A DNA stretch of 61,172 nt, counting the filler. It is 8 parts of 8 records of this genome, joined end to end, with 100 filler letters (N's around TTAATTAATTAA, not from the genome) between each part and the next. Parts side by side here need not be neighbours in the genome. Positions count along the whole stretch, not along the records: positions 31,052 to 36,986 come from SRR15195285_659; 7 more parts are not named here. The stretch is one strand, 5' to 3'. Each line of letters starts with the position of its first letter. The stretch's first letter is position 1. The notes under the pieces are model-generated. The model was not told where the DNA came from. It was given only the letters and a program-made list of their open reading frames with translations, and did not search any database. This document shows, in pieces, positions 1,136-60,000 of the stretch. Made by a program: the position numbers and the translations under genes.

Positions 1136-1508
1136 ACGGACCGGAACGGGATGGTCCTGCTGCCGAGCCTCGCGCCGAACATGCTGGGGATCTGCCACTA
1201 CGAGAAGACCTGCCTCAACCCGAGCGTGAGTGGCGTGCAGTGCATCAGCGTTCGGGGTCGCTGTTCAGCCGTTCGCAACGCCTGCTGCGGTGGGGCTTGT
1301 GCGCCCAGCTTCAGCTTGCGTGGAGTTGGTTGCTGACTGCGCGGCTCGGTGCGCCGTCGTGCTTTGCGAGCAGATGTGGATGCCGCATTAGGGTCGCCAC
1401 CGCCTCCGCCGCCGCCGCCGCCGCCCGCGCTGAGAGCTCTGCTGACATTACGGCTGGCAGTGGATTTGCGGAGGTCCTACTTATTCTGACACCGAGCACG
1501 CCAACGAA

Positions 1509-10260: not shown

Positions 10261-10360
10261 NNNNNNNNNNNNNNNNNNNNNNNNNNNNNNNNNNNNNNNN
10301 NNNNTTAATTAATTAANNNNNNNNNNNNNNNNNNNNNNNNNNNNNNNNNNNNNNNNNNNN
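10261..10360. other. Artificial contig linker
   Basis: 44 N + TTAATTAATTAA (stops in all six frames) + 44 N. Confidence 0.98.
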
Positions 10361-15017: not shown

Positions 15018-15117
15018 NNNNNNNNNNNNNNNNNNNNNNNNNNNNNNNNNNNNNNNNNNNNTTAATTAATTAANNNNNNNNNNNNNNNNNNNNNNNNNNN
15101 NNNNNNNNNNNNNNNNN
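15018..15117. other. Artificial contig linker
   Basis: 44 N + TTAATTAATTAA + 44 N. Confidence 0.98.
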
Positions 15118-26980: not shown

Positions 26981-27080
26981 NNNNNNNNNNNNNNNNNNNN
27001 NNNNNNNNNNNNNNNNNNNNNNNNTTAATTAATTAANNNNNNNNNNNNNNNNNNNNNNNNNNNNNNNNNNNNNNNNNNNN
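26981..27080. other. Artificial contig linker
   Basis: 44 N + TTAATTAATTAA + 44 N. Confidence 0.98.
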
Positions 27081-30951: not shown

Positions 30952-31051
30952 NNNNNNNNNNNNNNNNNNNNNNNNNNNNNNNNNNNNNNNNNNNNTTAAT
31001 TAATTAANNNNNNNNNNNNNNNNNNNNNNNNNNNNNNNNNNNNNNNNNNNN
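30952..31051. other. Artificial contig linker
   Basis: 44 N + TTAATTAATTAA + 44 N. Confidence 0.98.
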
Positions 31052-31052
31052 G

Positions 31053-34000
31053 CCGCAGCCAGAGCCAGAGCCAGAGCCAGATCACCCTGAGAACCCATGC
31101 CCTGGTCACTTCTCCGAGCCAGTCACGCTCACGTATCCGGCGTACGAAGCCTGGGCTGCGATGCCAGATGTTGTCCGCGTTTCGACGACGGGTGTGTCTT
31201 TGCCTGCGTACCTGTCCCCTCGCTCGGGAGACTTTCCTTGCCAAGCAGCTCCGACCGAGGTCAGCGTCCGGGGCGTCACGTTGATCGGTTCTATGGCCCG
31301 CTGTGGCGCACGCGGTGAGTGCTGCACGTGCTGCACGTCGGCTGGCGTGACCACTACGGAGGCGACTCAAGTCTGTGAAGCTGTGAAGGACGCGCAGGCG
31401 TGGGATGCGTCCGAGTACTACGACAGAACAACCGGCGTGCCGCACAATCCTATGAGCACTCGACCGCTCGACCAGGAGCGCTGCCAGGATATGCAGACGC
31501 TGGACGGTCAGGTCTGGCTTGACATCGAGGGGGACGCCTGCAACGCGTACCGTGAGATGTGTGAAGGAGGCGCTGTACTCACGCGGAGTTTCAATGCGCA
31601 AGACCGTGAGATTGTCGAGGGCTGGCTGAACCAGCCTGAGGTGTTTACGGCTGACGTTTTGGCTATCAATCTGAACCTTGTCGCTTGGGCGCCGATATCA
31701 GGCCCATTTCAAGGCATGTCGGCGCTGCACGCATGCTGCAGGTGTGGTGGAGGGCAGACGATACCTGAGCCTGTTCCACCGCCTCCGCCTCCCGAGCCGG
31801 AGCCGGAGGCCAGCCAGACCACGGCATCGACAAAGTCGCCAAAGGCGGAGCCAGAGCTGCCACCGAAACTCTACTCTCGCGCGGAGCTGATGATCTATAT
31901 CTGCGGCTGCAGCCTCTTCGGCCCTGTCGTCGCCGTCGGCGCGTACCTGTGCTTTACAAGAGTTGATGGTAAGACGGGTGCGATGGATATGACGTGGTGG
32001 CGAAAGCACAAGTCACTGCTGGCCATGTTCAGCCTGTACTACTGGTCAGTCAAAGTGTCAGAAGACAGCATGGGAAGAAACGGGCACGCCTGGCACTGGA
32101 AGTGGAGCTTCCTGGCCGTGCTCGCGAACCTCGTAGGCTTTCGATTCGTTTGGATGAAGGTGGCGGACTACGTATCTGCTCCGCCCGAAGCCGAAGGCCC
32201 GGTTGCGGTCTGCGACCCTGTCATGCTACTGCACCAAGGCAATGCTCTGATTGCTCTGTTCGTCCACTGTTGGCTGGTCCAAATCGCGAGCAACATTATG
32301 GCCTTCCAGACCGGCTTCATCGTGAGCCGGTATTACATGCTGTCTTCAAACGCGATCCACGAATCGTCGGCAGGTGACGATACTGACATCGAGCCTGTCC
32401 AGTGGCCAAGTCTCTGGGGGGGCGCTGCCCCGATATGGCGAGTTCTAGGACACTTTGCCTTGTTTCGGTCGGCGCTGCCTCTCTTCGACCTGTGCGAGAC
32501 GTTCCGCCGATACCTGCTTGGCCAACAATTCAAAGAATCGCTGCGATTTCGGCTGGTGCGAATGGCCATATACGGCCCAGAGCAGTCGTTGTGGGAAAGG
32601 GCACAGAGTAAACGGGCGCTCGACTATCAAGAAGACAAAGAGCGCATGAACATTGCGAAGATGCTATACAACGAGGCGGCCAGCGTGGAGGTTGTCTTTG
32701 TGTGCCTCTACATCCTCGGCGGTGTCCTGACTGTGCTGCTGCTCGCGGCTGTTCCAGCAAACCAAGGCGCGACAGGTTGCGTAACATCGGTTGAATGGGC
32801 AGCGGCGTGGTGCATCGGATGGAGTTGCACTCGACTATGGCTCTCGACACGACAAGCGGGCATCTCTGCCGCCATAGTATGTTTTGTCAATGAGCCGACC
32901 TTTTTGGCGTTTCTCGACTCAGAGTCCTACGTTAGCATGCGTGCGGTTAAGGGTAACGACGCGCAGAGACCCGGCGAGCATGTTTTCTATCATCTGCTTG
33001 ACAGTGGAAGGTACACAAAGCAGCAGGTTGCAGATATCGAAAAGCAGCGGGAGGAGTGGTTCATCGACAGGACGGACGCAGACCTAGTAGAGGACTGGAT
33101 TCGATGGGTCAGTTCGCATGTCGGTGTCTTTTCAGTCACGGAGGCTACCGGCACGAGGATTGAGTTGCTCTTGTTGAAAGATGGGCTCGGTACGATGACA
33201 GACACACAAGGTGGTGCTGATGACCTACTCAGGCTTCTGCAGCACATCGAGCGCCTGATCAAAACGCCGCCGGAATCGAACAAACGAGAATGGCTGATCA
33301 AAAATCGGACGGGTACACACGGCGCGCGCGCCGAGGCTCGGAGGTTCGAGACTGTGGATATCGAGTGGGAGTGGACCATCCAAGAGAAACTCGCACAGCT
33401 GCTTATTGCGCACAAAACTGGACTGATGGCAGCCATTGGCACTCGAAAGAAATTGGTATTGCCACAGTGGGCGAGACGTATGCCCCAGATCAAGGACACT
33501 CCAGCGTACAAGAAGTTTGACCACAATGAGTATGAGGCGCTCCGCTCGTTCGACATCTTCATCTCTTACCGGGTGAGCGCTCACGCGGGTGTTGCCGAAA
33601 GCTTGTTTCACAACCTGTCCAGAAAAAAGGGTGCCGACGGTAGGCCGATCACGGTGTTCCGAGACAAGGAATGCCTGGGACGAGGAGATTGGAAGCAGAA
33701 CTTCCTTCGTGCGATTGGTGCTGCCAAGATCGTGGTGCTGCTTGTGTCCCAGGAGGTACTGTTCGAATTCAGGAAGAATGTAGAAGGTCACGCAGTGGAC
33801 AACGTGCTGCTCGAGCACGAGTACGCTTTGCATATGATGAGTACCGGAACTGCGGAGATATTTCTTGTCCAAATTGGTACCGCACCACCCCTTCATCAGT
33901 GGCTTGACAGCGCGGACATCCCCAATGTTGATGCGTTCAAGAAAGCAATGACGGAGCGTGCGACCGACATGTCATCAGTGTCTTCGCTGACGGAGCTTGT

Positions 34001-36986
34001 AAAAAAGGATAAAACCTTCGTTGTGGATGCCTGCCAAAAAGCTGGTTTGAACACGGCGCAGACTGTTGCATTCCTGGAAAAATTGCGGAGCGTAGAGTAC
34101 CACTGGGGTGCTGTGCAAAATTTCGAGTACTCGCAGCAGCCACACTTCGACATCCAAAGTTTAGCACTCGGCTCAGTGAAGCAGACAATGATGCCCCTGC
34201 TTTGTCAGCAGTGGAGCACAGGGTTTGGCATAGACACAGGCAACACGACCGGCGTTGGGCTGCAGGTCGCTGACCTCGACGTGGGCAAGACTGTCCCCGA
34301 AGACGACAGTCGTTTCAACAAGGAGCTGATCTATCCAATTCTGAAGATGGTGGACAAGGTCAACTACGAGCAAACGTCCGAGGTTGTGGGTGGAAATTCA
34401 CGCCAAGGCATTTGGAAGGAGTTCGAAGCACGGTGGATGACCACGGTCTATTCCATCGCGCACGACAAAGAAATCATGCCCCAACAAATCAAGCCGAGCA
34501 AGGCCGTGACGGCAAAATGGCGCGACAAGGTCAAGGCGGCTGTGATGGCAGCGCGAGTGATGCCCTCGACACACTGCGCCGAAACTGCATGTCACACGAG
34601 CTGCTTCAAGTGCCATCACACGAACCTGTCGGAAAAAGAAAAAGATAGACGACTTTCCGACGGGGCACGCCTAGTTCTCTGGTGGGATGAAGAGACGTCC
34701 CCTGCCGGCAAAACTCAGGTTCCATCCAAGAAGTGGTCCCAGGTGATCTCGGAGGTCTTGGTTGCGTGCCGCATTTATGAGCGCTGCCGTGAGGACCTGA
34801 CTGTTCTTGTGCAAACGGACGGATCGGATCTGGAGCAGACGACATCTGCCGCTAAGAAATTCTCCCCGCGAGAAGAACGGCGTGCCAAACAAATCATCCT
34901 GCACACGGTAAAGCAGCTGAAAAAAGAGCTGATAGCAACAATGTGCTTGGCGGATCAAGACGAAGATGGAGTTCTGCTATCGTGGGCAATGATCGAGGTC
35001 GCCAAGAACAACCGTGACAGAATCTATGCTGGCGACTTCGTTGGCGACGATCAGGATGAGCCGCTGGTCAATGATGGCTGGAAGAGCGCAGCGCAGGAGG
35101 AGTATATCTACCTCCGCAACCAGCATTCTCTGCGGACGGGTGAGATCAAAACGTGCTTGGACCTGGTTGCGAACGACAGGTCTGCCGACGCCCTGGAAAA
35201 GATCAACAATGCCATTGCGAAAGTGGCTGAAACAGCGACGAATTTTGTAGAGAAAGAACGTGTCCGACTGGAACCATTGGCAACAACGGCTGATGTTGTG
35301 ACTCCGCTGAACAGCGACGAAGAGCGCAGCATCACCGACCAAGGGACCAGTCTCCAGACTGATGGCCAATATGTAGGAGCCGCACTCCAAGCGCTGGCCG
35401 CAATGGATGAGACGTTGGTCACCAGGTTGTCAGACGACCTCACCCACTTCAAAACTGAATTGCAGAAAATTATCGACAAGAGTGGAAAGCCGCACACCCC
35501 AACTCCAATCTCAGTTGCCGGGCAACAGGGCACATCCACCGCCCCTAGCTCCGAGCTGCAAGAGCTGGAGGCAGCAGTGCAGCAAGCGGAATCACACGAG
35601 GAAAAGGCTGTCTTGCGGTGCAGAAAGCGTAAGGCAGACTTCACGGCTGCGCTGGCAGACTTGGATTTGCTGAGCTATCAGGACACCCTGGAAGAGCAGG
35701 GGTATCGGTCGATGGGAGACATCTTTGCAGCATCGCTGGAGCAGTTGCAGGAGCTAGAGGAAACGATTCAGATGGCGCCTGGTGACCTTAATCGGCTCCA
35801 TAAAGAGTGGGGGGCACACCATGACGAGCGTCAGACTGCTGGGCCGAGCGATGCGCAACAGGACCTGAAGGAAATACAGAACACGAACCGCCGGCTTCGT
35901 TTCCACGATCGGAAGCAAGCCGAACTACTGGTAGAGCTCAAAAAGAAGCGCGCTGCGCAGCGAGAGCAAGTCGAGGCGCAGCGACTTGATGTTGAGACAC
36001 AGGGACTGGAGATGGAGCTGAAGGCGGAGACGCAGCAATTGAAAGCGGAGCTTGAGAGAATGCAGGAGGAGCATCGCCAGAGTGTACAAAAAGCAGTTGA
36101 GCTGCGGAACCAGCTCAACAAGTTCGTTGGATCATTACTTGATGAGTGGGACGTAGACCATGATGGTACCATCAGTCCAATAGAGTTGCACGACTATGTG
36201 GAGCATCTCTACGTGGAACATGCGTTCGGGTATGATGCTGCCGCCGACCAAAACATTGCAAACTTGATGCACAAGATAGATCGAAATATGGACGGCATCA
36301 TATCAAAGAAAGAGCTGGTCGAGTTTCTGCGACAGCACCACGGAAACCTTCTGTTGCATCGTTCAACAGGAGGGGAAGAGCAGATATATGATGACAATCT
36401 CATGGCGGAAGCTCTGCGCGTAGAAAGGGGAGAGGACGAAGAGGCTAGGAAGGCATCTTTGCAAGGCAAACCAATCGACACTGTTCCGAACATTGAGCAC
36501 GCGCTTGCTCTGTACGGCCTCTGTTCCCACGACTGTGGGGCGGAAGGCGACTGCCAGTTCCGTTCGCTAGCATTTTCGCTGCTTGAAAGTGCAGAAGAAC
36601 ACATGGAAGTACGACAGGCCGTCGTCAACGAATTGCGCGATCATCCGGAGAGGTACGAGGAATTTGAAGAAGCGTGGGGGCGCAACGCGCAGCTGACATA
36701 TGCAGAGTTTGTCCAGAAAATAGGCCGTCCTGGTGAGTGGGGTGGAAATGCCACACTCTATGCTGCATCCAACTACTATGGACGCGTGATCAACGTCGTA
36801 CGCGAGGATAAGTCATACGCGAGGATAAGTCCGCATGCTGGCGAACGTGAAGGAAACGATCTGTGGTTGGCCTACGTCAACGGCAGCCACTATCGTGCTA
36901 CAAAGCTTTGCACCGGCTTCGCTCATGCGACGACGCCAGACGGAGCGGTTTGTCATACCCCGATGGATTTGTTCAATCAAAAACAG
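31053..36986 (+). CDS. Multipass membrane protein with TIR, SAM-like, EF-hand and OTU deubiquitinase domains (truncated at both ends)
   Basis: The frame is open across the whole contig. Cys-rich N-region, then several TM helices (~31890-32890). TIR: FDIFISYRV, VFRDKECL, IVVLLVS, DNVLLEHEYAL (~33550-33880). SAM-like: LDLLSYQDTLEEQGY...MAPGDLNRL (~35640-35800). EF-hands: DVDHDGTISPIE, DRNMDGIISKKE. OTU: GDCQFRSLA, GEWGGNATL, GSHY (~36530-36900). Confidence 0.9.
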
Positions 36987-37086
36987 NNNNNNNNNNNNNN
37001 NNNNNNNNNNNNNNNNNNNNNNNNNNNNNNTTAATTAATTAANNNNNNNNNNNNNNNNNNNNNNNNNNNNNNNNNNNNNNNNNNNN
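36987..37086. other. Artificial contig linker
   Basis: 44 N + TTAATTAATTAA + 44 N. Confidence 0.98.
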
Positions 37087-37602: not shown

Positions 37603-39831
37603 TTACAATAACTGTAGCGGGGGACCCATCGTCGACTTGAGGTGAATTGTCTTGATGCTGCCCCAGCCATCCTTAGTGGCCGAGATCAAGCAGTCGATAG
37701 CTATGGAAATGTTTTCGGTCAGTTGCCTCGGAGTCATTTGCACGTGGCCGATGGCCACCTGGAGACCCATCACCTTCTTGAGCTGCCATTTGGATTTGCA
37801 CCGCAAATTCTCCACTGCGTCTATTAAGTTCTTGCCATCCGGGAGCACCGCGGGAAACTTCGCAACTTTACCAGTCGTAGGTCCGAGCACTCTCGGGATA
37901 TGCTTGATCACGGACTCGGACGCCAAGAATGCGGCATAGGTATCGAACAGCTTCTTCACCTCTTTCTTGTCCCGTCTCAGCTCGCGAAGCATGTCAAGGC
38001 TTCGCCACGGAATCCCATGCGTCTCCGCCTCCGCGCAGTGTCGTTCATCGCCGATCACGCAGACCAAATGTGCTGGGCGGGGGCAGTGTCGCAGTGTGAA
38101 CGTGGCTGCGAAACGCTTGTCTTGTGAAGGATCATAACCTTGGAGCCCAACCTGAAGTTCTACTGTCTCTAGGTAGTTGCGTGGTTTTGGCCCCTGTTCT
38201 ATCAGGCCAGCTGGATAGCGCTTCGAAGGCTTGGTTTCCACTGGCTGCTCCAGCACCTGACCATTTGAAAACGACAGACACTGGCAAATCCTCAGCATGA
38301 TTTCCCCGTCACAGTCATCAACTGCTGTGGTGCTGCTATATCCACCATTATACGGTTTAGACAATGGACGATGCAAGCCGCCCCACTGTTCACTACAGCG
38401 TTCTAGTACAGTAGCAGTCGGCTGCTGCTGCTGTTGCTGTGATAGCTGCTGCTGCGACACCATATGGACCAGCTGGGGATCGATCGTGACTTCCTGTTCA
38501 AAGAGCACGGTGGCCAGCGCCAGCCGCTGCGCAGCTGCCACGACTAATCTCGCGGCGAGACGTGCTTGCCGCTCCTCAATTTTCTCCTGCTCACTCATCC
38601 TCAGCCATATAATGTTTGCCTCATGGTGCTGAGAAAACTCCGCTATGATCCCAGGCCGTGCCAATCTGCGTCTCTCGACTACCTCTTGGCTGCGACCAGC
38701 TCTCTGACAGGCATTCAGCTCCGCACGTAATGCGGACCACCACTCTGGCCGCTGGATATTCAGGCTGTGCGCGGGAGTATCACGCAGTCGGTTTGTCAGC
38801 AGCTTGCGATGTACAGTAGCCTTGGTCACAGCAGCTTCATGTGCAGCGTCTGGAGCTAGATAGTCAGCGTGTATTGCCCAGGGGCGCCGAGTACCACGTC
38901 CATACGGAATCACCTCGGCAGCTAGCGTGGTGATCAGGTTGGATGTTTCGACCTTGGCTACTCGAACAGCCACCTGCTGTTGTAGCACTGACTGTAGCTC
39001 CTGATCAGCCGCTTCCACTGTGGCGTGGGCTTCCACAGCCACCACTTCCGCTGCAATTCTTCGAGCACGTTCCTCATTGGAGCGTGTCCGTACAATAGCC
39101 GTGATGCTCGAGGCGTACGAAGGCTGGGGCATTGAGGCTGTTTCTTCCGGCTCCGGTTCCAGACCCAGCTCCGGCTCTGGCTCCGGTCCGTCTGCACTCC
39201 AGGCAACGGTATCTAAGGCAGATGTCAGCGCAGCCTGTCTTGCGACACCCTGGGGTCCCTCTGTGGCTTGGAGGACGCCGAGCCACGCTGCAAGCTCAAT
39301 CTCCTGCCTCGTGGTTCGCTGCTGCAGGCTTGCAAGCAGCTGGAGACGCTCATCTGACCACCTACCAAAAAGCGCGATCTGTTCACACTGCTCTTCCAGT
39401 GGGCGGTGGCAACACTGCTCTCCAAGCTGGGCGCGTGCCTGCTTCCAGTCCGGCTCGACCGTCAGGTGCAGACGATAGACCTGGATAAGCTTGAACCGGT
39501 CGGCCGTAGCGGCAGTATGGTCGTCCTTGCAGCCCGAAAGCCGCAGCTCGAAAGCGTCGCCCGGGTAGACGGAGCGGCTAGGTTTGGCTGGTGGCTGGCC
39601 ATCTGACACCACCCAAGCATCCACGCGCCCGACCGGTCCCTGCGGGGTGCAACCCACGCTAGCTGCGCGCGCTGCACGGATTGAGCCGGCCTTGCATGCC
39701 CTACGGGCTGCGGAGGCCGAGGGAAAGACGTGAGCGCTGCAAAGCCAGCGGTCTAGTCGCTCGACTGCGCCTTCCTCCTCCTCCGTCCTTCTGCAACTCC
39801 GCCGAGCGTACCAGCGGGCTGTGACCATCAC
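37603..39831 (-). CDS. Fusion of an Hsp15/S4-like RNA-binding domain and a divergent ribosomal protein uL1 (RPL10A-like) domain
   Basis: N-terminal RLDRWL...FPSASAARRACKAG...KPSRSVYPGD (S4/Hsp15 pattern). The C-terminal ~200 aa contain RNYLETVELQVGLQGYDPSQDKRF, FLASESVIKHIPRVLGP, QLKKV, HLKSTMGPP, which is the eukaryotic uL1 signature. Confidence 0.85.
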   Translation of the reverse strand: MMVTARWYARRSCRRTEEEEGAVERLDRWLCSAHVFPSASAARRACKAGSIRAARAASVGCTPQGPVGRVDAWVVSDGQPPAKPSRSVYPGDAFELRLSGCKDDHTAATADRFKLIQVYRLHLTVEPDWKQARAQLGEQCCHRPLEEQCEQIALFGRWSDERLQLLASLQQRTTRQEIELAAWLGVLQATEGPQGVARQAALTSALDTVAWSADGPEPEPELGLEPEPEETASMPQPSYASSITAIVRTRSNEERARRIAAEVVAVEAHATVEAADQELQSVLQQQVAVRVAKVETSNLITTLAAEVIPYGRGTRRPWAIHADYLAPDAAHEAAVTKATVHRKLLTNRLRDTPAHSLNIQRPEWWSALRAELNACQRAGRSQEVVERRRLARPGIIAEFSQHHEANIIWLRMSEQEKIEERQARLAARLVVAAAQRLALATVLFEQEVTIDPQLVHMVSQQQLSQQQQQQPTATVLERCSEQWGGLHRPLSKPYNGGYSSTTAVDDCDGEIMLRICQCLSFSNGQVLEQPVETKPSKRYPAGLIEQGPKPRNYLETVELQVGLQGYDPSQDKRFAATFTLRHCPRPAHLVCVIGDERHCAEAETHGIPWRSLDMLRELRRDKKEVKKLFDTYAAFLASESVIKHIPRVLGPTTGKVAKFPAVLPDGKNLIDAVENLRCKSKWQLKKVMGLQVAIGHVQMTPRQLTENISIAIDCLISATKDGWGSIKTIHLKSTMGPPLQLL

Positions 39832-45896: not shown

Positions 45897-45996
45897 NNNN
45901 NNNNNNNNNNNNNNNNNNNNNNNNNNNNNNNNNNNNNNNNTTAATTAATTAANNNNNNNNNNNNNNNNNNNNNNNNNNNNNNNNNNNNNNNNNNNN
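45897..45996. other. Artificial contig linker
   Basis: 44 N + TTAATTAATTAA + 44 N. Confidence 0.98.
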
Positions 45997-46034: not shown

Positions 46035-49000
46035 ATGCGCTGGCTGCGGCGGCGGCGGCTGCGGATGCTGCTGCTGCTCGGCGTGGTGGTGGTGGTGCTG
46101 CTGAGGCCGGTCGGCGCGGAGGAGGAGGACGAGCGGCAGCGGAAGGAGGAGGAGGAGGAGGAGGAGCTTGTGGTGATGGTGGACAGGCGTGCTGCTGCGG
46201 ATGGTGCTGTCGATGGCGGTGGTGGTGCTGCAGCTGCTGCCGCGGCGGTTGATCTTCCTGCGCATCCAGTTGATCCGTTGCTCGGGCCGCTCAGCCCACA
46301 GGAGGAGGTTATGAACAAGCCTGCTCAGGAGGAGGCAGCAAGGGGCGCCCAGGCTGCTGCTGGTGCTGCTGTGGCGCCGGATCGGCCTGCACATCCAGTG
46401 GATCCGTGCGTGCTCAGTTGTTCAGCTCTCGCTGTGCCTAGGGCATCTGATCGCTGCAGTTAGTCACCCAGTCACTTCGAAAGCATAGGCGGGCAGCCCC
46501 TGTGCCATTCGCCCATATTGTCTCTCACACTGCGATTCGGCGCCGCAGAGAGCATGGGAGGGATCAGCTGGCTGGCAGCGCGGAGGCAGCGAATGCTGCT
46601 GGCGAGCCTGCGGCAACGGCGGCGCCAGCGGCGGACAAGGAACGCGGCTCGCTGCAGGGGCAGCGGGGCGCCGAGAGCACGGCGTTTGTCGAGTTGTCCG
46701 CGCTCTCGAACGAGATTGCGAGTGGTGCCGTCAAGGCTGGCGAGGCGACGAAGCGCGTGTCAGCAATCATCAAGCGCGCCGAGCAGGCGCTGCCCCCGGG
46801 CGGCGAAGCCCTGGCAGCGCTGCGTCTGCGAGGCGCAGAGCTGGTGGCGATGACGTTCCGCCGCGCGAAGCAGGCGGACGATCAGCTTCGGAATGACCTG
46901 CTGCAACTAGTTAGCGAGGCGCGCGCGGGCCGTCGGCAAGCCAAACCTGGCGCGGGGGGTCTTGCAGAGCTTGGGGATGAAGAACTTGATCTGGACGCGC
47001 TGATAAGGCTTGCCACAGACGAGCTCGGCACCCATGACGACGCAGTCACGGCTCTGCATCAGCTGCGCGACAGAAGGAACGATCACAAGCCACTAACACA
47101 TGATGGCGAGGCGTTCAGGGCGACGGTGGCTTCAGCCACAGCTGTAGATGCAGACGCAGCCACTGAGGCTGCGCGAGACTTGCATCAGGCAGGGAAGCTA
47201 CAGAATGGAAACCACTCTACATCGGTGGAAACACTGCGGGAGCGGATCGTCTCTTTGCAGAAACATTTCGGTCTCCCGCTCCTTGTGCCCAGGAAAACGT
47301 CACCGCCACCACCAGGCGCAGGCGTGAAGAGGGGTGGGCAGATGCAGCGGCCGACGGTGCTGGACACATCTCGAAGCGCATGGGCAGCGGCCACCAATAC
47401 CAGAATTGCATGGATCAATCGCTTGCACCTGCACGTATCACTCAGCAGCGCCAACAGCTCAACGGCGGAAAGGACTGATTCCACAACTGATAGCCATGGC
47501 ATCGATAGGGACCGCATGATCTGGGCAAATGCTAGCTCGGCATCCAATGCAGTTCACATCGGCGAGGCCTCGGCACGCTGCCCACCGCAGGCACTAGTGG
47601 GTGGAGGTCAGACACGGAGCGAGAGCTTTCGACGAAACTGCGCGGCGCACGTCCTTGACGGCAACCAGAACACACTGTGGCACGCGGGGCAGGCCCAAGG
47701 CAACTGGCTGACGTTGACAGTCCCGACTGGAGTTGTGTTTGATGTGCTAGAGGTGCAGTCGATTGATGAACGCCTAGCAAGACCGACCCTGCAATGGGGT
47801 ACATCGGCGGACGGTCCATGGGTGACCCTGCCTTCTAGCCGTGACGCGGCAGGCGTCTCCACATGTGACGGCTTGCTGCCAGACACTCAACAGGTTAGGT
47901 CTAATAGATCAGACGGTGCAAGCCCTGCCGAAAGCGTAAACCACTCGAACGTTGACACTGACAACCACACCAAGTCCGCCAACGGCAGCAGCTCGACTGG
48001 AGGTGACACCTTGTGCCATCGGTTGGTGGCGTCTCGGCAGAGCACCCGGTTCTGGCGTTTGCAGGTTGCGTCGGCCCAGGATGACGGCAGGGACGACCCT
48101 AATGACCCATATCGTTTCCCGTGGCCAGTAATATCGGAGGTCAACTTTGGTGTAATATTAACGCCCGCTGAGCGCCAGCAGTTGCTTTATGCCAATCATC
48201 ATAAGCAGGGGCAAGTCGGCACTCAGTTTACGCCGCTGAACATGGGCAAATACACGCATACCACAACGGCTCGCACAACTGATGTGCGACAAGACTTCCG
48301 CCCTACATCTGCACGACTTTCGCGGCCGCCTCCACCGGCGCCGCCGCCGCCGCCAGCACCATGTGTCGCAGTGTACGACACTGGAGTACCACTGATTCCG
48401 CCACGGGCATATTGGGTGATAATCGAGGACGTACCGACATTTCCTATCTCGATAACGCTCCCTGACTCGGCGCTGTCACATGCGGCCAAGCGAAAGGCGG
48501 TGCCGCCTCCGGCACCACGTACAGGCAATTCATCAAAGCCAACCCATGTCGCGGAAGCACCGCTGCACCATGGACCACAGCAGGAAGTGGCTGCGCGAGG
48601 GAACACCAGCTTTCAGGATAGTCGAGTGGAGGGCGAGGACCTATCACCGTTGTCGCCAGAGTCTATTGACACAAACAATAATGGCAGAGTTTCTGCACAC
48701 GAACTGAGCGCAGCTGTCGTAGGCTCTACTGGACGTTGGCCCTACGCGAAGAAGGTGGAGGCCGGCGGCGCAGCGATCGCCTTGCACACAGTGGACCCTG
48801 AACTGGCCGTACATATGGTGATATCTGGCGCAAGCGCAGAGGCAATGCGACAAGTGGGAAGGTCACCGCACCCACGTGCTACTTTCGACGCGGCACGCAC
48901 CGCAGCTTACCCAAAGGATGGTACTTCTTCGGGTGAGAAGGAGCAGCGGTGGCAACAGGAGCTACACGAGCTGTGGCTGAGAACTCAGGAGCAGCAGTCA

Positions 49001-52000
49001 GCTCCTCCGCCGGCAGCAACAGAGCTCTCTGATCGAGGACAACAAAATGATACCGAAGCTTCAGCGGACGCGGTTGATGAAGGTATCAGTCTGCATCTTT
49101 GGTTTTATCACGGCTCTGCACAGCCAGGCGGTCAGCGATCAATCGTCACATACGTGCCACCACACAGTGCGGCGCACGCACCCGGTGGGGCACCTGCGCA
49201 ATCAGGCTCTTTGCAAGGTAAGCTGCCGTCGCTGCAGTTGCGAGCAGACGCACGGAATTCCTCCCGAACACTACTAGCTGCAACACTCTGGACAAGCAAG
49301 GGTCGGCATGTAGCTTTGGTTACTGGACCGCTAGGGACAGCAGTGCCTTCATTCGAGTGGGCACACCTCGCCGTGGTGGTGCGGCCGAGACTGGCGCAGA
49401 TATATGTAAACGGTGACATGACCGCCTACTCGTCGTCGCTATCAGATAGCTCTGAGCAGTTCATTGTCATACCAGACGCACCAAAACGATCAATGGGTGA
49501 ACCCCCGAACTCGGTGCTGTACGAGAATACGAGCTTTGCCATTGGGAAAGCTTCCCTCAGAGCTGGAATTTCGTCTCGTGGTGCTCGCGGCATGGTGGAG
49601 CGCATGTCCATTTACGGCAGGCCATTGTCCCCCGGTGAGGTGCGCTGGCTTGCGACATGCTCTGGAGTGAACAGCAAGAACAGGGGTATCGATTCACCCT
49701 GGCAGCCAACTGCTCCACATCCGTTTCTACTCAGGGTGTCGCAGGGCGGTTCCACAGCCCCATCAGGAACTGTTGCACCGGTAACCCTTCGGCGACCTCA
49801 AGAGCCGCTCTCAACACCAGAGATGCCACCGTCATTTGTTGGGGCGATTGCGTCCGGCCGCTCGGTGTTTACGAGGCACATGCCGTGGGCACTGAAACTG
49901 AAGCTGAAGCTAGATAGCGCCGAGGTTGGACTGTTGCACAGCTGGCGACAGCCTGATGACGTACACGACACGTCCCTGGAACAGGTTGGAAGCGAGTACG
50001 AGCCGCTAATTGCCGCAGCGGATGCACTTCGAGAGGCATATCGCACAGGAAGACTGCCGAGTCTCTACGAGCACAGTGGGGCTCCAGGCAGCACACCTCC
50101 AGTACAAGCGGATACTGACAACGACGAAGCGAGCTCTGATGGGCCCGAGATACGTATGGTCGACATCGCTCGGGACGTGGCAATGGCACGGTGCATAGAG
50201 CTGCTGCATAGAGCTGCAGCCGTGGGGAGCTGCCAGGCAATGCACCGACTCGGAAGCTTGGTGCTCAGTGGGGAGTGGGCTGAGATGAGAGGACAAGGCA
50301 GGGCGGCGCTGTCCTTGCTGGAGTTTGCGGGACGTGGCGGGTGCGCAGACGCGCTTGCGTTGGCAGGGCATGTCGTGGCTGCGGGCAAGATTGCAGGGAT
50401 TGAGACGCCTATCTACCTTAACACAGCCGGCACCAGCACCGACACAGACGCTGACACCAAGGAGGTACACGCATGGCAGTTCTATCACGCGGCTGCGATG
50501 TATGGATCAATCGACGCGCATGCTGCGCTCGGGCGACGCTATTTGATCGGCGACGAGAACACACCCTATGCCAACCGAGTGTTGTGGCGGCCTGAGGGCT
50601 CAATCCAAGCTGCCTTGGCAATGGGACACTACTGCCAAGCTGCGCGCATCGCTGTTGCTCAAATAGACGGGGGTTCTTCGCTGCCCTTCACGGAGACCGT
50701 GCGGCTATCGTCAGACCAAGGGACACAAGGACAGTCCGGTGATGACGACGAATTGCTCCAGTATATCAAGCTACAGGCAGACGCAGGGGAAGCAGGAGCG
50801 TTAATGCAGATGGGTAGACTATACTACGCGGGGCAGCGTGGTATCCCTCGTGAGGCCGACCGCGCCTTAGAATACTTCCAGCAGGCAGCAGAGCAAGGCG
50901 TGCCGGAAGCAGAATTCAATATTGGCGTGATGGAGTCGCGAGGAGAGGGAGCGACGGGGGAGGTGGACCAGGCGGCAGCCTATGAGCATTTTGAGCGTGC
51001 GGCAGATGGCGGACACGTACCAGCACAGAATGGCCTTGGAGTAATGAATTTACACGGGCAGGCGAACACGACACGCAACGCAACAAAGGCAAGGCAGTAC
51101 TTCCAGATGGCTGCAGACCAGGGAGACGGTGATGGCATGGCAAATTTGGCGGCGATTCTCACCAACGGCGATGCTTCAACGACACCAGGTGGTCACCACC
51201 GCAGCGCGTCTGAAATCATCGAAGACAAGATTAAGGCAAAGGCGGAGGCCTTCCGGTGGGCGGAACTCGCAGCTGCTGGTGGGCACACCAAGGCATCGAT
51301 TCTGCTCGGAGACTTCTTCAGAGACGGTGTTGGGACCATGCCCGACGCAGAGCAGGCTGCTTGGATGTATCGTAAGGTCGCGGAGCGCGCACCTTCTTTA
51401 GGACTCGTCCTGCGCCAGGCCCTCGAGTGAGTGCTTTCCGATACATTTTCTGTACTACTGCACTTTGCATTCTACTCATGTCCACCCCAGTTTCACTGAC
51501 GCGTCGTGTTCCGACTCACGTAGGTGGCAAATGGTGTCTACTGGGCCGGCAGAGATATCACAGAATGTTGCCGACGTGACCAGGGAGCACAATGATGGTT
51601 GGCAATGGTCGGGGAGTGGCGCGGGTGAGTGGGAGCGTGCCGTGACCTATTATAGGATAGGCGCAGAGATTGGTTACGAGTTGGCTGCGGACAACGCCAT
51701 CTGGTTGATAGAAAACGATATTTTCGGCGGCAGTGGGTGGCCAAAAGCCTTCAGACACACGCTGGCGGATTCGGCGGACCCCCTAGTCGCACCAGCAGAC
51801 AAAGGAACAAACGCAGGAGCACCAATGGAAGTGCTAGCCGAAATATGGCGGATGCTAACGACGGTGGAGGTGCAGCACGGGCAGCGGTTGCTCCAACTCT
51901 GGCTGGGTGTGCTAGTGGCGCTGTACCAACATGCCAGCGATAGTGAGAACACCGAGGCGATGCTGCAGCTCGGCAACTTGCAGTATTACGGCTATGTTAC

Positions 52001-53950: not shown

Positions 53951-54050
53951 NNNNNNNNNNNNNNNNNNNNNNNNNNNNNNNNNNNNNNNNNNNNTTAATT
54001 AATTAANNNNNNNNNNNNNNNNNNNNNNNNNNNNNNNNNNNNNNNNNNNN
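53951..54050. other. Artificial contig linker
   Basis: 44 N + TTAATTAATTAA + 44 N. Confidence 0.98.
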
Positions 54051-54051
54051 G

Positions 54052-57000
54052 CCAGAGCCAGAGCCAGAGCCAGAGCTTGAGCCTGAGCCTGAGCCGGACG
54101 ACAGCTCTGCCAGTGCGGGAAGCGAAGGCAGGTCGGATCGAGCACGCAACGCCGCCGCAGATCGGCTGAAGCATATCAAGCACGTGGAGGAGGCAGAGGA
54201 GAAGGCTCAAAATGAAAAGCGGTGGAAGAAGACCAAAACTCCGATGCAGATGGCGTCGTTGTTCACTGCAGCTCAGAATGAAAAGGAGGTACAGGCGGCA
54301 GCCTTGTGGGGCGAAAAGGGCAGCGCGTGGAAGCGTGCCAAGATGGTCAAGCAGATGGCCGGCGCTGTGATTGCAGTGGAAGAAATGTCCGCGGACCTTT
54401 TCATGATGCACCGCAAGGCGACCTACATTCAGGCACACATTCGGTGTTTTTTGGTACGGGCGCGACTTGGAATGGCTCCTGGTGACTCGCTCGTGAACGA
54501 ATCCACGCGACAAATGGTTCAGACTGTTTTAGCCGAGAGGAAGTTGGCTGAAGCTATGGCCCAGCTGACGCCAGAGGCGCAGATTGGCGTGTCCAAAATG
54601 GGCACCCAACTTTGCAACATGACGAAAGAAATCACTTTCAACAACGCGGCGGAACATCTTGTGCTTTGCATCAAGAACCCAAATATGTCCATGCTCGTGG
54701 TGAACTTCGCTCTGACAGGTGGAGGAGGTGGGCGGCCGATTCACCACGCAGCTAGGTTCAAGAACCTAAGGATGACTAACTTCCTGCTGGGACGGGCTGC
54801 TGAGCTCAACTTGCGGGATAAAGCTGGCTGGACGGCGTTGCACCACGCCTGCGCGCCGCCGTTTCCCTCAGCAGCTGCCAACAAAGACGAAGTTCTTGTC
54901 GACGTTGGGGCCGTTGTCCGGAGCTGTACGGTAACGGCCGAGGCTCTGCTGGCTAGAGGCGCAATGTTCAGCGTACCTGATAACCGTGGTTTCACGCCGC
55001 TGCATCTGGTCGCGTTTGAGTGCATCAAGCACATCAACTTTTTCCACATCAACACGAACGATTTAGAGGCTGCAGCTTATGCGCAGTGCTGCTTTCAGAT
55101 GATGGGGTATCTTGTCGACACGGTGGGGTGCAACCTCGGGACTGTAGACCGACGGGGCAACAGTATGCTGGGGACATGCGCGATCGAGGGTGGTCCCGGG
55201 GGTGTCGATGTTGCCGGTTGGTTGCTGGACCGCGGCGCAGACTTCGAGCACGTTAACAAAGAAGGAAAGACATCGTTTTTCTTGGCGTTACAGCATGGCC
55301 ATGGTGGTGTGGCTACATTGCTGAGGGACGTGGGGGCGGACCAGAACGCTGTCGACAAACTCGGTATCACTCCAAAGGAGCATGCATTATTCTTGAGGAG
55401 GATAACGCATCTACTGTATTGTGAAAACTGGCCAAAAGATTTCATGGACGCGCTGAAGGAAGAGAAGCTCTGGACAGGTTGTGAAGTTTCACAAGGCGTC
55501 GACCGCATGAAGCGTGAGCTTACGCAAAAAGAGCAACAGGACCTCAATAATCTGGAGGATCTCATTTCTTCTCCAACATGGAAATGGGGATCTTCGCCGC
55601 CGGCAGGATTTACTGAGTTTCACAATCCAAGTCATCGGGATTTCGAGAGCCCTTTCGAAATTTTTGATCCTGCCTCGCTCGGAAATATGCTTTATTATGA
55701 TTCAATGTGGGTACAAATGGACGATGAAGGTGACGGCATGGTGTCACATCTGGACGTGGATTGTGGATTGTTCTTTGTACCTCTAGCACAAGGTTCCTGG
55801 CGCTGCACATGGCCAGGACGTCTACTTGGCTCTGATGGGCAGGCTGAATGGGTCTTGAACGATGGTATCCAACCGCTGAAATCGTTTAAAGCTCATGAGC
55901 GCGGCATCACAAGCACGGTGGTGATTGCGACATCGACCTCGGGTGAAAGAGAGCTTCTGACAACAATTTCAGAAGGACTGGATGCAAAAATTTGGGATAT
56001 TCCTGCAATGCGATGTGCGGCGACCCTAACCGGGCACCGAGAACGCGTTACTTGCGTTGTGTGCGCATCAAATGTGATATTCACGGGCAGCGTAGACCGT
56101 ACTATCAGAGTGTGGTCGCTGCTCCAGAATGGCGCCTGTGTAGCGGTCTTACGTGGACACACTGATTCAATCACCGCACTGGCTGTCGATAGCGCGGCTA
56201 CTTGGCTTGCATCAGGAGCACACGATGGCTCCATTAGGATATGGCACGTGCCTGCCAGAACGTGCACAGCCGTTTTCGGCGAGAGTCGAAACGTTGGGGT
56301 GGCATCTGCGGCGTTCCCACGCTGCTTGGTTTTGGACGAGAGCCGTTCGCACTTGTACTGTGGACTTCAGAATGGTGAACTGCAGTTGTGGAATTTGCAC
56401 CAGCATCTTGTGACCTTGAAACGTCCCAGTGTAGCCAATCGTACAAAACCAAAGCTGCTCTTACCTGGCAAGCCGGATGAGCTGGTCGAGATGGCACGCG
56501 AAAACGTGACAATCGTACGCAGTGACTTGCAGCCACTATCGGTAGCCCCGTTTGACACATGGGAACACATCAGCCCAGAAAATCAGAAGGTTCTCTTGCC
56601 AGGCTGTGTCTATGTGTACACACTAACCGCGAAAAATTTCGGCGCCCCGCTGAAAACTGTTGTTATAAAGGACATGTTGGAGACTGGGATGAAGTTCGTA
56701 GAATGCCGCCCGGTGGCTGCGTCTGTGCAGTGTAAGCGAGAGTTCAATGGTCGGACGACAGTTCATTGGCAGATTGATAATCTTGGTGTAGCGAAGGAAG
56801 CCGAGTTGTCATTCCATATCATGGCTGACACACAGGGAACAGTCGCCCGCCCGCTCCGATTGATGAAAGGCGAAGGACTTGCTGTGATGCGGATGAAATT
56901 TTTACAAGGGCAGCTGCATTGTGGATTTCAGGGAGGCAACGTAGTTCGGCTGGCTATTCACCACGAAAAGAAGCCAGTAAAGCTCTCGCGTATATTCAAA

Positions 57001-60000
57001 TCAACCCCAGAAGACGATGACCCATGGGCAGTAGAGAGAGTCAAAAAGAAATCATTCTCGATTCGTTTCCTTTGGTGTTGCGTGACCTGTCTGTTGTGCC
57101 GCAGAGGCTTGAAGAAATTGCATTCACGATGCCGTCGTGCTTCTGAGAAGTACAAAGTCAGCCCTGCCCAAGGCAAGAAACCCATAGCTCACATAAAAGA
57201 CACCCAGTTTCTCAATCAGATGACCGACCTAGAAGGCGATCTCGAACGTAGCGTTCTTGTAACCGGATTAGATGGCGATGAGAAGTGGACCACGTTCTGT
57301 GTCGGCAAGCAAGTTTACTCGGTGCCGAAGAGCCAGAAAAAGGAGACTGTCACAAACTATCATCCGATCTCAGTACGCGCTGTAGAGGTGACAAATGGTT
57401 CTATGCTCGCTGGGTACTCTGACGGCGTCATTCGAGTGTGGCCCATGCGGCCACCGAGATCGTGGGAGGATACTGACTTGTTCTTTGTTTTGTTGATCAA
57501 CATTGGATATACGCTGCTCTTCTTCATGTCGTTTCTGTGGTTTTGGCGAGCAGCTCCTGTGGTGAAGAAAGTGCTCTCGTCGATGTCGCCTTGTCAACGG
57601 TGGCGACACCCACTGAAACAGCACCAGCGGCGAGAGCTGATTAAGGATACCGCGATAGCGGCTGCAATCGATGCACTTGCTGTGTTTTTCATAGTTCAGT
57701 ACGCTTTCCTTGTCCCGACATGGACTGCAATCAAGGATCTATGGCGAGTCAAGCCGGACGAGTTTATCAAAGACCCGGACGCGTTTAAATTGGAGGTTGT
57801 CGATGCGTATAGAAATCGGCTGGAGCACCATTTGGAATATCTGGATAGAATCGCGCGCTACCCGCGTGATCGATTGCTGTTGCTATCACATCGCTTTGCA
57901 ACATTTTGCCGTGACGCTCTGTACGGTGGACACAGATCCGAGATAGTGTGCATGGACACGTACGGCACGCGCTTGTTCAGTGCCTGCAAAGCAGGAGTGG
58001 TTGTTGAGTGGAACCCATCTACTATGACAGATATCGTCGGTCAGTGGCTTTATCGGCCTGGCATATCATGCTTGCAGTTCTTTCCGCTGACCAAGAGTCT
58101 GGTAACGTTGTGGATTGGGACGGCCGATGGGCATCTTGACGTGCACATCTTGGGCACAGGAACTTTAATGTGTTCTTTTCACGAAGACCTTGAAATCCAG
58201 CAGAAGTTCGATGAATTGGACGAAGACAAAAGTGGATCGCTAGACGCCCAAGAGTTGGCTCAGCTGATAAAGCAGTTGTTGGAAAGCAGCCGCGCAGAAG
58301 CAGGCAAAAAGCCCATAGCAGAGGGAACAAAGGGCATGCGAAAACTGAAGAATCGATGCCTGGAGATGGCAGTAGAAGTATTGGCCGAAATGGACGACGA
58401 CAATAGCGGCGAAATTGACTTGGACGAATTTTCAATGTGGTGGAAGGCGTACAGGAAAAAGACAAGCCACGGCCTGTTTGCCGGACTATTCAGCGGACAA
58501 TCTGCAGCACCTCATGGTGGCACCCGTGGCGGGGTCATGTGCATAACACCCGGACGTCTTAATGACCATTCCTTTCTTCTTGTTGGCTGGGAAGACGGTA
58601 GTATTGTGAAGATGCAGCTCACGAAGCCAATCGGTGTTTTGCAGACGCGAGAGGTTGAAGTTCTCGGAGAGCTGAAGGGCCACCTAAAGCCAGTCGAAGA
58701 GATCGCCATGCACAACTTTGTAATTTATAGTCGTAGCAAGACTCGTGTGCTAGCTCATAACATCAAGACGCATGAATGCCTCGTCTCCTTCAACGATTCA
58801 GAGGACGATAAAATTGCCGGCTTCGTGTTTCTTAAGGAGCAGATGTTCATGGCTCACAACAGTAATGTTCTTGTGTGGGATCTGACAGAGAGCTTGTACC
58901 GTAAAGATCCGATGAATTTGAATGATGTGCAGCTGACTATTAGTGGTGGAGAGCTGATGACCGTTAAGTCTGGAAAGGTGATTGGTTCGCTCCAGGGGCA
59001 CACGGCACAGGTCACAGCCCTGAAATTGACACAGAAGAGCTTATTTAGCGCATCTGCTGATGGAACAACGAGAGAGTGGAAGTTTGCTCAGCCGTGGGAG
59101 TGCATCAATGTTTTCGACTCGCAGTCTGATCGTGTTGAGCGCATTACCGTGTGCGGCAGACAAATATATTGTTCTCACCCAGATGGTTGCATGAAGGGTT
59201 GGCAGCTTCGGTCTGGCTTCTCAGACGGTGAGAATTCTTCATCAAAGAAAAAAGTCAATGCTGGAGTGACGCAAGCTCTGAATCAGCTGCTCGGTCAAGC
59301 GAAGTCGGCTGCGCGCGACGTGACTGACATCACCTTTGGCCCAACTTCTGGCCGATCTATTGAGGTTTCCTTAGTGCCCCCAGTTGCGGTGACGTGTACA
59401 GCTGCGTTCTCTACAGCTGTGCTGGATGGTCGCATTTATGTGGGCCTGCAGAACGGAGATCTGTGGATACTGGAAGGTAGCAGTGGCAAGAACTTGGCAA
59501 CTGTCCAATGTGGCCACAACAATAGCATTGGATGGTTGATACTCGAGGTGGCCACGATAGCATTTCAAGTAATTCAGCTGGTCGGTCTGAGCTTTTGCGT
59601 GGACAACACCCAGTGGTCTTACACTGGAGCAGCAATCCGACAGTTTTTAGGCCGCCTCGTTTTCCGCGCTCGCGGATTCCATGCTCCTGCATACAAGCCG
59701 ACATTCTTTTTGGCTTCAGCCATATGTGTTCTGTACATCGCCTTGATAGTGATGCAGATCAGGTACAATTTCATCGCGAACATGCTGCTTCGATCGAAAT
59801 ACTGCCAGCGGGCTTATGTGCAACAGCCGTTGGCGCTGCTTAGCAGTATGTGTTGGATGACAATTTGGTTGGGATCATCAGTTTTGATCATTCCTACAAC
59901 TCGTGGACTTGCAGCAACTTTCGACTGTGCGTTTGATTGCTGGACTGGCGAGCACGCACTATATGCAGGAGGAGCTTCGGCGTTGCTTCTGCTCTATGTA

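Follow-up and report, generated by a model that had tools for sequence, protein, structure and literature searches.

A partial gene for a candidate receptor-type membrane protein combining a SARM1-like TIR domain, an EF-hand pair and an OTU domain

The contig SRR15195285_659 (positions 31052-36986, 5,935 nt) forms part of a 61,172 nt window in which eight contigs are placed end to end, and which does not represent one stretch of genome. It is taken up completely by a single open reading frame (ORF), which is the subject of this work and which runs stop-free through 1,978 codons and is open at both contig ends, with both the N- and the C-terminus of the gene product absent from the contig. The encoded protein comprises a cysteine-rich ectodomain, a multipass membrane block, a TIR domain interrupted by a helical insertion, a predicted SAM-like helical bundle, a charged stretch, an EF-hand pair and an OTU cysteine-protease domain (Table 1), and approximately 1,100 of its residues, in the ectodomain, membrane block, juxtamembrane stretch and middle region, are without recognisable fold. 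The contigs of the window are separated by artificial spacers of 100 nt (44 N, TTAATTAATTAA, 44 N), and because the contig is bounded by such synthetic sequence, genes beyond the spacers provide no genomic context for the ORF.

Table 1 Features of the ORF and of the window, in window coordinates; residue numbers refer to the ORF.
Feature	Position	Strand	Remarks
Single open reading frame	31053-36986	+	1,978 codons, stop-free, open at both contig ends
Cys-rich ectodomain	31092-31757	+	residues 14-235; Pro/Glu-rich linkers 1-13 and 236-272 on either side
Multipass membrane block	31887-32915	+	residues 279-621; from Kyte-Doolittle peaks
Juxtamembrane stretch	32916-33548	+	residues 622-832; no recognised fold; conserved in P0002 and P0078
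TIR, N-terminal part	33549-33890	+	residues 833-946; strands A to D, helices A to C
Codon of Glu921, putative catalytic glutamate (DNVLLE)	33813-33815	+	aligns with SARM1 Glu642
Helical insertion in TIR	33891-34118	+	residues 947-1022, ~76 residues, four predicted helices
TIR, C-terminal part	34119-34385	+	residues 1023-1111; conserved post-strand-D segment, strand E, helix E
Middle region	34386-35612	+	residues 1112-1520; no recognised fold; collinear with P0002
Five-helix SAM-like fold, predicted	35631-35837	+	residues 1527-1595
Charged stretch	35850-36128	+	residues 1600-1692; proline-free, 40% charged
EF-hand pair	36129-36347	+	residues 1693-1765; loops 36150-36185 and 36279-36314
OTU cysteine-protease domain	36540-36890	+	residues 1830-1946
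OTU catalytic codons	36552-36554; 36888-36890	+	Cys1834; His1946
Spacers	10261-10360, 15018-15117, 26981-27080, 30952-31051, 36987-37086, 45897-45996, 53951-54050		artificial

Relatives were collected with an exhaustive phmmer search using residues 270-1469 against 1.84 billion representative proteins, which returned 302 matches at E ≤ 1e-3, seven at E ≤ 1e-10 and one at E ≤ 1e-30. The single strong match (P0002; 1,838 aa, E 8e-168, 38% identity) is a EukProt prediction from Picozoa sp. COSAG02; Picozoa are a sister group of red algae that lacks plastids and is known from single cells only. Starting at the Pro/Glu linker, P0002 and the ORF are collinear: ectodomain, membrane block, juxtamembrane stretch, TIR domain, insertion, middle region, SAM-like stretch and charged helix follow one another in both, as does the first EF-hand, and P0002 ends inside the second. 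It contains a true N-terminus, with a hydrophobic segment (signal or anchor) at residues 75-93 that reads like a signal peptide if the start is Met73. When P0002 was compared to the window by tblastn, one collinear match was found (31098-36287), and neither P0002 nor the ORF matched the other seven contigs below E 0.4. A paralogue encoded on a different contig of the same Picozoa assembly (P0078; 1,461 aa, 27% identity to the ORF) shares the NPC..., RCGARGECCTCC and CCxCGGG motifs within a longer ectodomain, and resembles the ORF again from the last membrane spans through the juxtamembrane stretch into the beginning of the TIR domain. The source name of this predicted protein says complete, yet it ends inside the TIR domain after strand C, possibly because the gene is truncated or frameshifted or holds an intron. 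All three relatives with this layout and a named source are eukaryotic and come from Picozoa sp. COSAG02; as judged by sequence, the family is thus real, small and so far picozoan. Word-indexed homologue searches gave nothing for the whole ORF (7,997 candidates scored) or for the EF-hand-OTU part (911 candidates), and carry little weight as the method also missed P0002. A metagenome scan gave 585 pattern matches, none confirmed as a family member, and the sole match of another metagenome scan (L001) was rejected as an unrelated EF-hand protein.

In contrast to the full layout, the TIR domain has many relatives. Among the best 150 of the 302 phmmer matches, 147 touched only ORF residues ~802-990, corresponding to the TIR domain, and the same pattern was assumed for the remainder. 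Within a size limit, 104 of these best 150 were scanned for domains in rank order, revealing TIR_2 in 98 of 104, SAM_1 in 12 of 104 and ankyrin repeats in 4 of 104. The SAM_1 domain lies C-terminal to the TIR domain in three of the relatives (P0005, P0007 and P0029) and N-terminal in the others found. As 12 of the 104 carry a true SAM_1 domain, the pairing of TIR and SAM recurs in the subfamily, in both orders. In the ORF itself, Pfam TIR_2 was found at residues 835-964 (E 2e-5). Across the aligned 104 family sequences, Asp916, Asn917, Leu919 and Glu921 of the motif DNVLLE each reach a conservation of 90% or more; Glu921 is also invariant in P0002, as is the TIR sequence DNVLLEHEYALHM.

A TIR family profile was constructed from the ORF segment and 54 relatives (P0002 and 53 matches chosen mostly for short length) and compared to the PDB, where it matched 39 sequences at E ≤ 1, nearly all of them TIR chains. 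SARM1 was the best match (E 3.6e-12), followed by Roq1, TIR-1 and plant and bacterial TIRs. The DNvLLE motif aligned on DWVHKE of SARM1, placing Glu921 on position 642 of the 724-residue chain as counted from the start of the match, and for a SARM1 chain carrying E642A the profile match was lost from position 637 onward. An AlphaFold2 model of residues 815-1135, computed from the family alignment, reached a mean predicted local distance difference test score (pLDDT) of 77.8 and a predicted template modelling score of 0.74, with a core above 90. The model shows the flavodoxin-like TIR fold of five strands and five helices, with strand E at low confidence. A Foldseek search with this model listed TIRs almost throughout, none at E ≤ 1e-3, with SARM1 in first place (E 2e-3, probability 1.0), and VIA-align superimposed it on the SARM1 TIR domain (6o0u_A) with Z 14.9, a root-mean-square deviation (rmsd) of 2.4 Å, 140 of 140 residues aligned and 23% identity. 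The first-pass annotation, made from the nucleotide sequence, had proposed a TIR domain with a glutamate in DNVLLEHE, and both profile and model bear this out: the TIR domain is real and, on this evidence, SARM1-like, with the putative catalytic glutamate kept.

The same model locates an interruption of the domain. Strand D ends at residue 941 and is followed by four helices at 947-1022, a confidently predicted segment at 1023-1055, and strand E (1067-1072, pLDDT ~51) and helix E (1086-1111), which together complete the TIR fold. Because the 140-residue fold spreads over ~270 residues of the model (18-287), the TIR domain appears to be split by an insertion. Residues 1023-1055 correspond to the conserved stretch that follows strand D throughout the family, with NV+xTMxxLFxIQG in relatives and SVKQTMMPLLCQQ in the ORF, while the insertion has no counterpart in the TIR relatives; identity to P0002 is 30% over residues 947-1064 vs 53% for the TIR core. 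A second SAM-like stretch had been suspected inside the TIR domain (~33900-34090). The model supports an insertion at this place but its identification as SAM found no support: a three-sequence SAM hidden Markov model (HMM) scored 3.5 bits, a 17-sequence HMM gave nothing, hhalign returned a probability of 0.4%, and phmmer gave only chance-level contacts with the SAM segments found in P0005 and P0007 (domain E ~5).

At the C-terminal end of the frame, the EF-hand pair was recognised by Pfam in two stretches within residues ~1697-1761 (EF-hand_1 29.7 vs a cut-off of 25.4, EF-hand_5 28.5 vs 25.9, EF-hand_6 27.1 vs 25), with the pair model EF-hand_7 at 22.1, under its cut-off of 30. The loops, DVDHDGTISPIE and DRNMDGIISKKE, can be read directly as canonical 12-residue loops of the DxDxDG type ending in Glu, in line with the canonical pair named in the initial annotation, and the first EF-hand is conserved in P0002. 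Beyond the EF-hands the frame continues stop-free for 213 codons, giving a full OTU domain that scored 33.7 bits with Pfam OTU (PF02338; cut-off 23.3) over profile positions 2-127 of 128. In the PDB it matched human OTUD3 (4bou, E 1.4e-5), where GDC(Q)F aligned on GNC(L)F and SHY on EHY, so that the cysteine and histidine proposed earlier occupy the expected boxes. Profile methods thus recover both TIR and OTU, the contig gives no sign of being a chimera, and with Glu921, Cys1834 and His1946 present neither domain looks catalytically dead.

Towards the N-terminus, residues 1-270 contain 14 cysteines, 14 of 14 invariant in P0002, in agreement with the Cys-rich ectodomain described initially; the motif RCGARGECCTCC recurs in P0078, and Pfam and PDB searches with the ectodomain gave no match. 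The membrane block contains five strong hydrophobic peaks in a Kyte-Doolittle plot (279-297, 353-371, 398-416, 547-565 and 603-621), common to the ORF and P0002, along with weaker ones, and can be regarded as the multipass region that had been suggested. A 195-residue metagenome fragment (P0149) matches residues 239-364, covering the linker and first spans. No family was found for the membrane block by Pfam, PDB or Atlas search, and the juxtamembrane stretch had no match in Pfam or PDB. From hydropathy we infer a topology with an outward-facing, disulfide-rich ectodomain, an odd number of at least five spans, and cytosolic TIR, EF-hand and OTU domains.

Between the TIR domain and the EF-hands, the middle region was without match in Pfam and PDB. 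It contains a Cys/His cluster (HCAETACHTSCFKCHH, 34572-34622, residues 1174-1190), conserved in P0002 only in part, that may be a zinc knuckle. The downstream SAM-like domain and the coiled coil of the first-pass annotation fared less well. For residues 1527-1595, no SAM match was found in Pfam (maximum E 10, although HMMER filters drop most matches above ~0.1), by phmmer against the PDB or with the 17-sequence SAM HMM, and hhalign gave a probability of 0.5%. AlphaFold2 predicted five helices for residues 1510-1604 (pLDDT 75.8) from an alignment of two sequences, the second being P0002, which has a 19-residue loop insertion here relative to the ORF. With this model, Foldseek listed SAM domains in 32 of 36 rows with a best E of 0.29, and a VIA comparison to 48,161 chains, independent of Foldseek, gave the acidic repeats of NusA (Z 7.0), the SAM domain of Sans (Z 6.4, rmsd 3.1, 70 residues aligned) and that of tankyrase (Z 5.9, rmsd 2.4, 65 aligned), where the tool regards Z values of 5-7 as commonplace among helical bundles. 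The segment is therefore at most faintly suggested to be SAM-like in its predicted fold, and is not called a SAM domain here. The charged stretch is probably helical; in a crude heptad test it did no better than shuffled sequences (fraction reaching the observed value 0.13-0.53), and the coiled coil is left without support.

The remaining contigs of the window show eukaryote-like gene content. A 2,705-residue frame at 1446-9563 (+) contains thioesterase, AMP-binding, carrier, ketosynthase, acyltransferase and ketoreductase domains, resembling a hybrid non-ribosomal peptide synthetase/polyketide synthase megasynthase, and a UNC-93/MFS protein is also encoded. At 54052-61170 (+), a frame still open at the window end runs for more than 2,373 residues and encodes a further giant multidomain protein, with an EF-hand pair in addition to ankyrin repeats and WD40 propellers. 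Sel1 repeats and a Laminin_G_3 domain occur in a frame of 1,659 residues at 46451-51430 (+); a weak tblastn touch to the TIR domain inside it (48548-48895, E 0.49) was not accompanied by any TIR match in Pfam. Cytosolic ribosomal protein uL1/L10a is encoded at 37606-38241 (-), at the end of a stop-to-stop frame of 761 codons; its best database protein is 63% identical and named eukaryotes are ~45-50% identical. These low identities suggest a divergent, poorly sampled lineage. The source organism probably belongs to the Picozoa or to a related group.

We favour, at a probability of roughly one half, the reading that the gene is real and partly assembled, that it derives from an uncultured marine eukaryote, and that its product is a very large membrane protein of the secretory pathway, acting as a receptor-type TIR NADase, i.e. 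one that splits nicotinamide adenine dinucleotide (NAD+), combined with a Ca2+-tuned deubiquitinase. The domains, their order and the catalytic residues are read from the frame, and a second gene keeps this layout as far as the first EF-hand. The cytosolic tail of ~1,350 residues would comprise the split TIR domain, ~400 residues of no known fold, the SAM-like bundle, the charged stretch, the EF-hands and the OTU domain. In such a receptor, the ectodomain and membrane block would sense a ligand or stress, leading the receptors to cluster. TIR NADases require self-association to form their active site, and clustering could bring the TIR domains together so that the site assembles around Glu921, by analogy to SARM1 and to plant and bacterial TIRs. 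With Glu921 as catalytic residue, NAD+ would be split into nicotinamide and ADP-ribose or a cyclic ADP-ribose isomer. Since the EF-hand pair directly precedes the OTU domain, Ca2+ control of deubiquitination is suggested, and Ca2+ bound to the pair may modulate the OTU of the same polypeptide, which would remove ubiquitin, or a modifier resembling it, from neighbouring signalling proteins or from the receptor. A part in immunity or cell death is plausible from the domain content; oligomerisation driven by a SAM domain and a coupling of NAD+/cyclic ADP-ribose, Ca2+ and deubiquitination, both envisaged in the first-pass annotation, are conceivable from the same content.

A stronger form of this reading would be a self-contained loop, in which clustering activates the TIR domain, a product of the cyclic ADP-ribose type releases Ca2+, and the protein's own EF-hands then switch the OTU on or off. 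If true, a single molecule would answer a cue from outside the cell with three kinds of signal, NAD+-derived, Ca2+ and ubiquitin, and would represent a protist innate-immune or cell-death module without counterpart in animals, plants or bacteria; we regard this as a long shot.

Several observations weigh against a receptor-type TIR NADase with a Ca2+-tuned deubiquitinase. The Pfam TIR_2 score of 25.5 bits lies under the gathering cut-off of 28, and the 76-residue insertion near helix D might change or prevent assembly of the TIR; strand E is modelled at a pLDDT of ~51. In the OTU domain, the acidic residue three positions before the catalytic cysteine is Glu and not Asp in the alignment to OTUD3. 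The OTU fusion was seen in this contig only, as P0002 ends inside the second EF-hand, and among the public contigs of the four runs considered below no piece bridges 36364-36419. Oligomerisation is at most hinted at, with SAM-like scores that are low and tied with NusA repeats and a coiled coil that found no support. The membrane topology is a reading of hydropathy, by which the number of spans could lie anywhere from five to eight, and the NADase, OTU and receptor functions are predicted from domain content. Protist TIRs with the catalytic glutamate can make cyclic ADP-ribose, and according to a preprint describing a heterologous screen 4 of 29 tested were active (bioRxiv 10.64898/2026.04.20.719644). 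Because only 4 of these 29 non-animal protist TIRs showed activity, the glutamate alone is no proof of an active enzyme.

The last point bears directly on the best-placed alternative, in which the TIR domain is a non-enzymatic scaffold for assembly, as in animal Toll-like receptor, interleukin-1 receptor (IL-1R) and MyD88 signalling. The protein would then serve a heterotrophic flagellate as an ordinary receptor at the cell surface, recognising prey, mates or nutrients, with an OTU domain that edits receptor ubiquitin (endocytosis, turnover) and is tuned by Ca2+, and without NAD+ signalling or an immune role. Scaffold-type TIR folds match the model well in VIA-align (IL-1RAcPb Z 13.1, IL-18Rbeta Z 13.0, MyD88 Z 12.3, MAL Z 12.2), and deubiquitinases commonly control receptor trafficking. 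The insertion may disturb an enzyme-type assembly, and the few active proteins in the screen fit this view as well. On the other hand, the best profile and fold matches are enzymatic, with SARM1 first and plant TIRs next, and the conservation of Glu921 and its motif among the 104 relatives suggests selection on a catalytic site. We consider a purely scaffolding receptor the less likely reading, though it is the main rival.

The fusion itself could in principle be an amplification or assembly artefact, with the OTU part or the EF-hand-OTU junction stemming from another gene and no TIR-OTU architecture behind it. The underlying assembly is fragmented and neither end of the frame is closed, P0002 as the sole long homologue breaks off before any OTU and thus gives no second witness of the junction, and a similar OTU was found in 0 of the 150 TIR relatives listed. 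Short public contigs from four runs were placed on the ORF; stretches without cover in these four carry no weight. Pieces of 99-100% identity from independent marine metagenomes cover parts of the ectodomain, the membrane block (limited to runs X2, X4 and X6), the TIR domain, the middle region, the EF-hands and the linker-OTU, leaving the stretch between EF-hands and linker unbridged as described above. Run X1 contains identical pieces of the TIR domain and the middle region as well as of the EF-hand (36213-36363) and linker-OTU (36420-36571) parts. The frame stays open through the 213 further codons into a nearly full-length OTU profile match, the EF-hand and OTU parts have the same G+C content at third codon positions (0.56), and the codon-usage cosine of the tail vs the rest (0.85) falls within the 0.81-0.91 spanned by all blocks. 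With everything up to the first EF-hand collinear in P0002, a chimera appears very improbable.

The same comparison gave two further observations. Two RNA libraries, one of them polyA, contain identical pieces of the membrane block, the middle region and the charged helix, a weak hint of expression, as DNA can be present in such libraries. A contig from run X2 (record 13) is ~90% identical over 33716-33950, differing at 23 places in 235 nt across helix C and strand D of the TIR domain, and loose letters behind 33837 in this run encode a homologous peptide in frame, which indicates that a close strain, species or paralogue exists in the sea. An intron at the loose ends at 33796/33797 was rejected: the loose letters differ between runs and lack an AG end.

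That the gene is foreign, from a giant virus, bacterium or other contaminant binned with eukaryotic contigs, is hardly credible: mis-binning can occur in such assemblies, TIRs are common in bacterial defence, and language-model look-alikes (0.89-0.90) are mostly bacterial TIR clusters, but the three same-layout relatives with a named source are Picozoa proteins, the other named TIR relatives come from Paulinella and chytrids, the exact pattern DNVLLE[HY]EYAL is absent from 2.9 million viral contigs and from one genome each of 185,579 prokaryote species, the PADLOC bacterial defence protein models matched the ORF with 0 families at E ≤ 0.01, and pieces occur in a polyA RNA library.

When compared to known systems, the closest relatives in layout are the Picozoa proteins, of which P0002 has the same order of parts as far as the first EF-hand. 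Membrane-anchored TIR proteins with the conserved glutamate, whose expression is tied to viral infection, have been described in Gephyrocapsa huxleyi (PMC12489294). As predicted for the ORF product, these carry a TIR domain with the glutamate inside the cell, preceded by several membrane helices or by an extracellular part; they bear structural likeness to signal-producing TIRs and were proposed to be receptors in the virus response. The comparison is one of descriptions, and the main text of that paper contains neither 'OTU' nor 'EF-hand' (PMC12489294). Titles and the openings of abstracts in the literature likewise revealed no TIR-OTU or EF-hand-OTU fusion, and a 2020 survey of TIR groups mentions neither. 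The impression that this architecture was unfamiliar is thereby strengthened, as the layout is common only to Picozoa proteins and no similar OTU accompanies the TIR domain in the 150 relatives listed.

Among solved structures the closest TIR is that of the animal NAD+ hydrolase SARM1/TIR-1, which shares with the ORF the catalytic glutamate, the DxFISYR start and the BB-loop pattern, and a further likeness may lie in the SAM-like bundle elsewhere in the chain. SARM1 has the order ARM-SAM-SAM-TIR with a C-terminal TIR domain, whereas the ORF has no ARM or SAM match in Pfam at E ≤ 1, its TIR domain is internal and split, and its SAM-like bundle is single, lies ~415 residues after the TIR domain and is not recognisable by sequence, in contrast to the tandem SAM domains of SARM1. 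The ORF product is further distinguished by being membrane-embedded, with an ectodomain, EF-hands and an OTU domain. It is therefore not a SARM1 orthologue, and by analogy could work like a receptor-coupled SARM1-type TIR. Toll-like and IL-1 receptors resemble it in their succession of ectodomain, membrane and cytosolic TIR (fold match Z 12-13), but have a single span, leucine-rich repeat (LRR) or immunoglobulin (Ig) ectodomains and a scaffold-type TIR domain, whereas the ORF encodes several spans, a Cys-rich ectodomain without LRR or Ig match and an enzyme-type TIR motif. With no LRR match and five or more predicted hydrophobic spans, it is not a Toll-like receptor. The OTU domain belongs to the same Pfam family as OTUD3-like enzymes and aligns with them at the Cys and His boxes; it differs in being a distant match, in having Glu for Asp at -3 and in being fused behind the EF-hand pair of a membrane TIR protein. 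EF-hand-bearing deubiquitinases such as USP32 and USP6 belong to the ubiquitin-specific protease class.

TIR domains are an immune currency of bacteria, plants and animals, while their use in protists is largely obscure; only recently were enzymatically active protist TIRs and algal membrane TIR proteins responding to virus reported. The gene adds to these a lineage-restricted receptor family, represented by this organism and Picozoa, in which a SARM1-like TIR domain is predicted to follow a multipass membrane block and, in the present copy, shares one polypeptide with Ca2+-sensing and deubiquitinase domains. Should the fusion prove real and active, a functional link would be predicted between TIR products, Ca2+ and ubiquitin editing; if the protein is just a receptor under trafficking control, it would extend the list of TIR architectures in a modest way. 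Set against the known systems, a receptor-like membrane TIR with the glutamate is familiar, and what is new is the combination of EF-hands and OTU, the insertion in the TIR domain and the multipass block.

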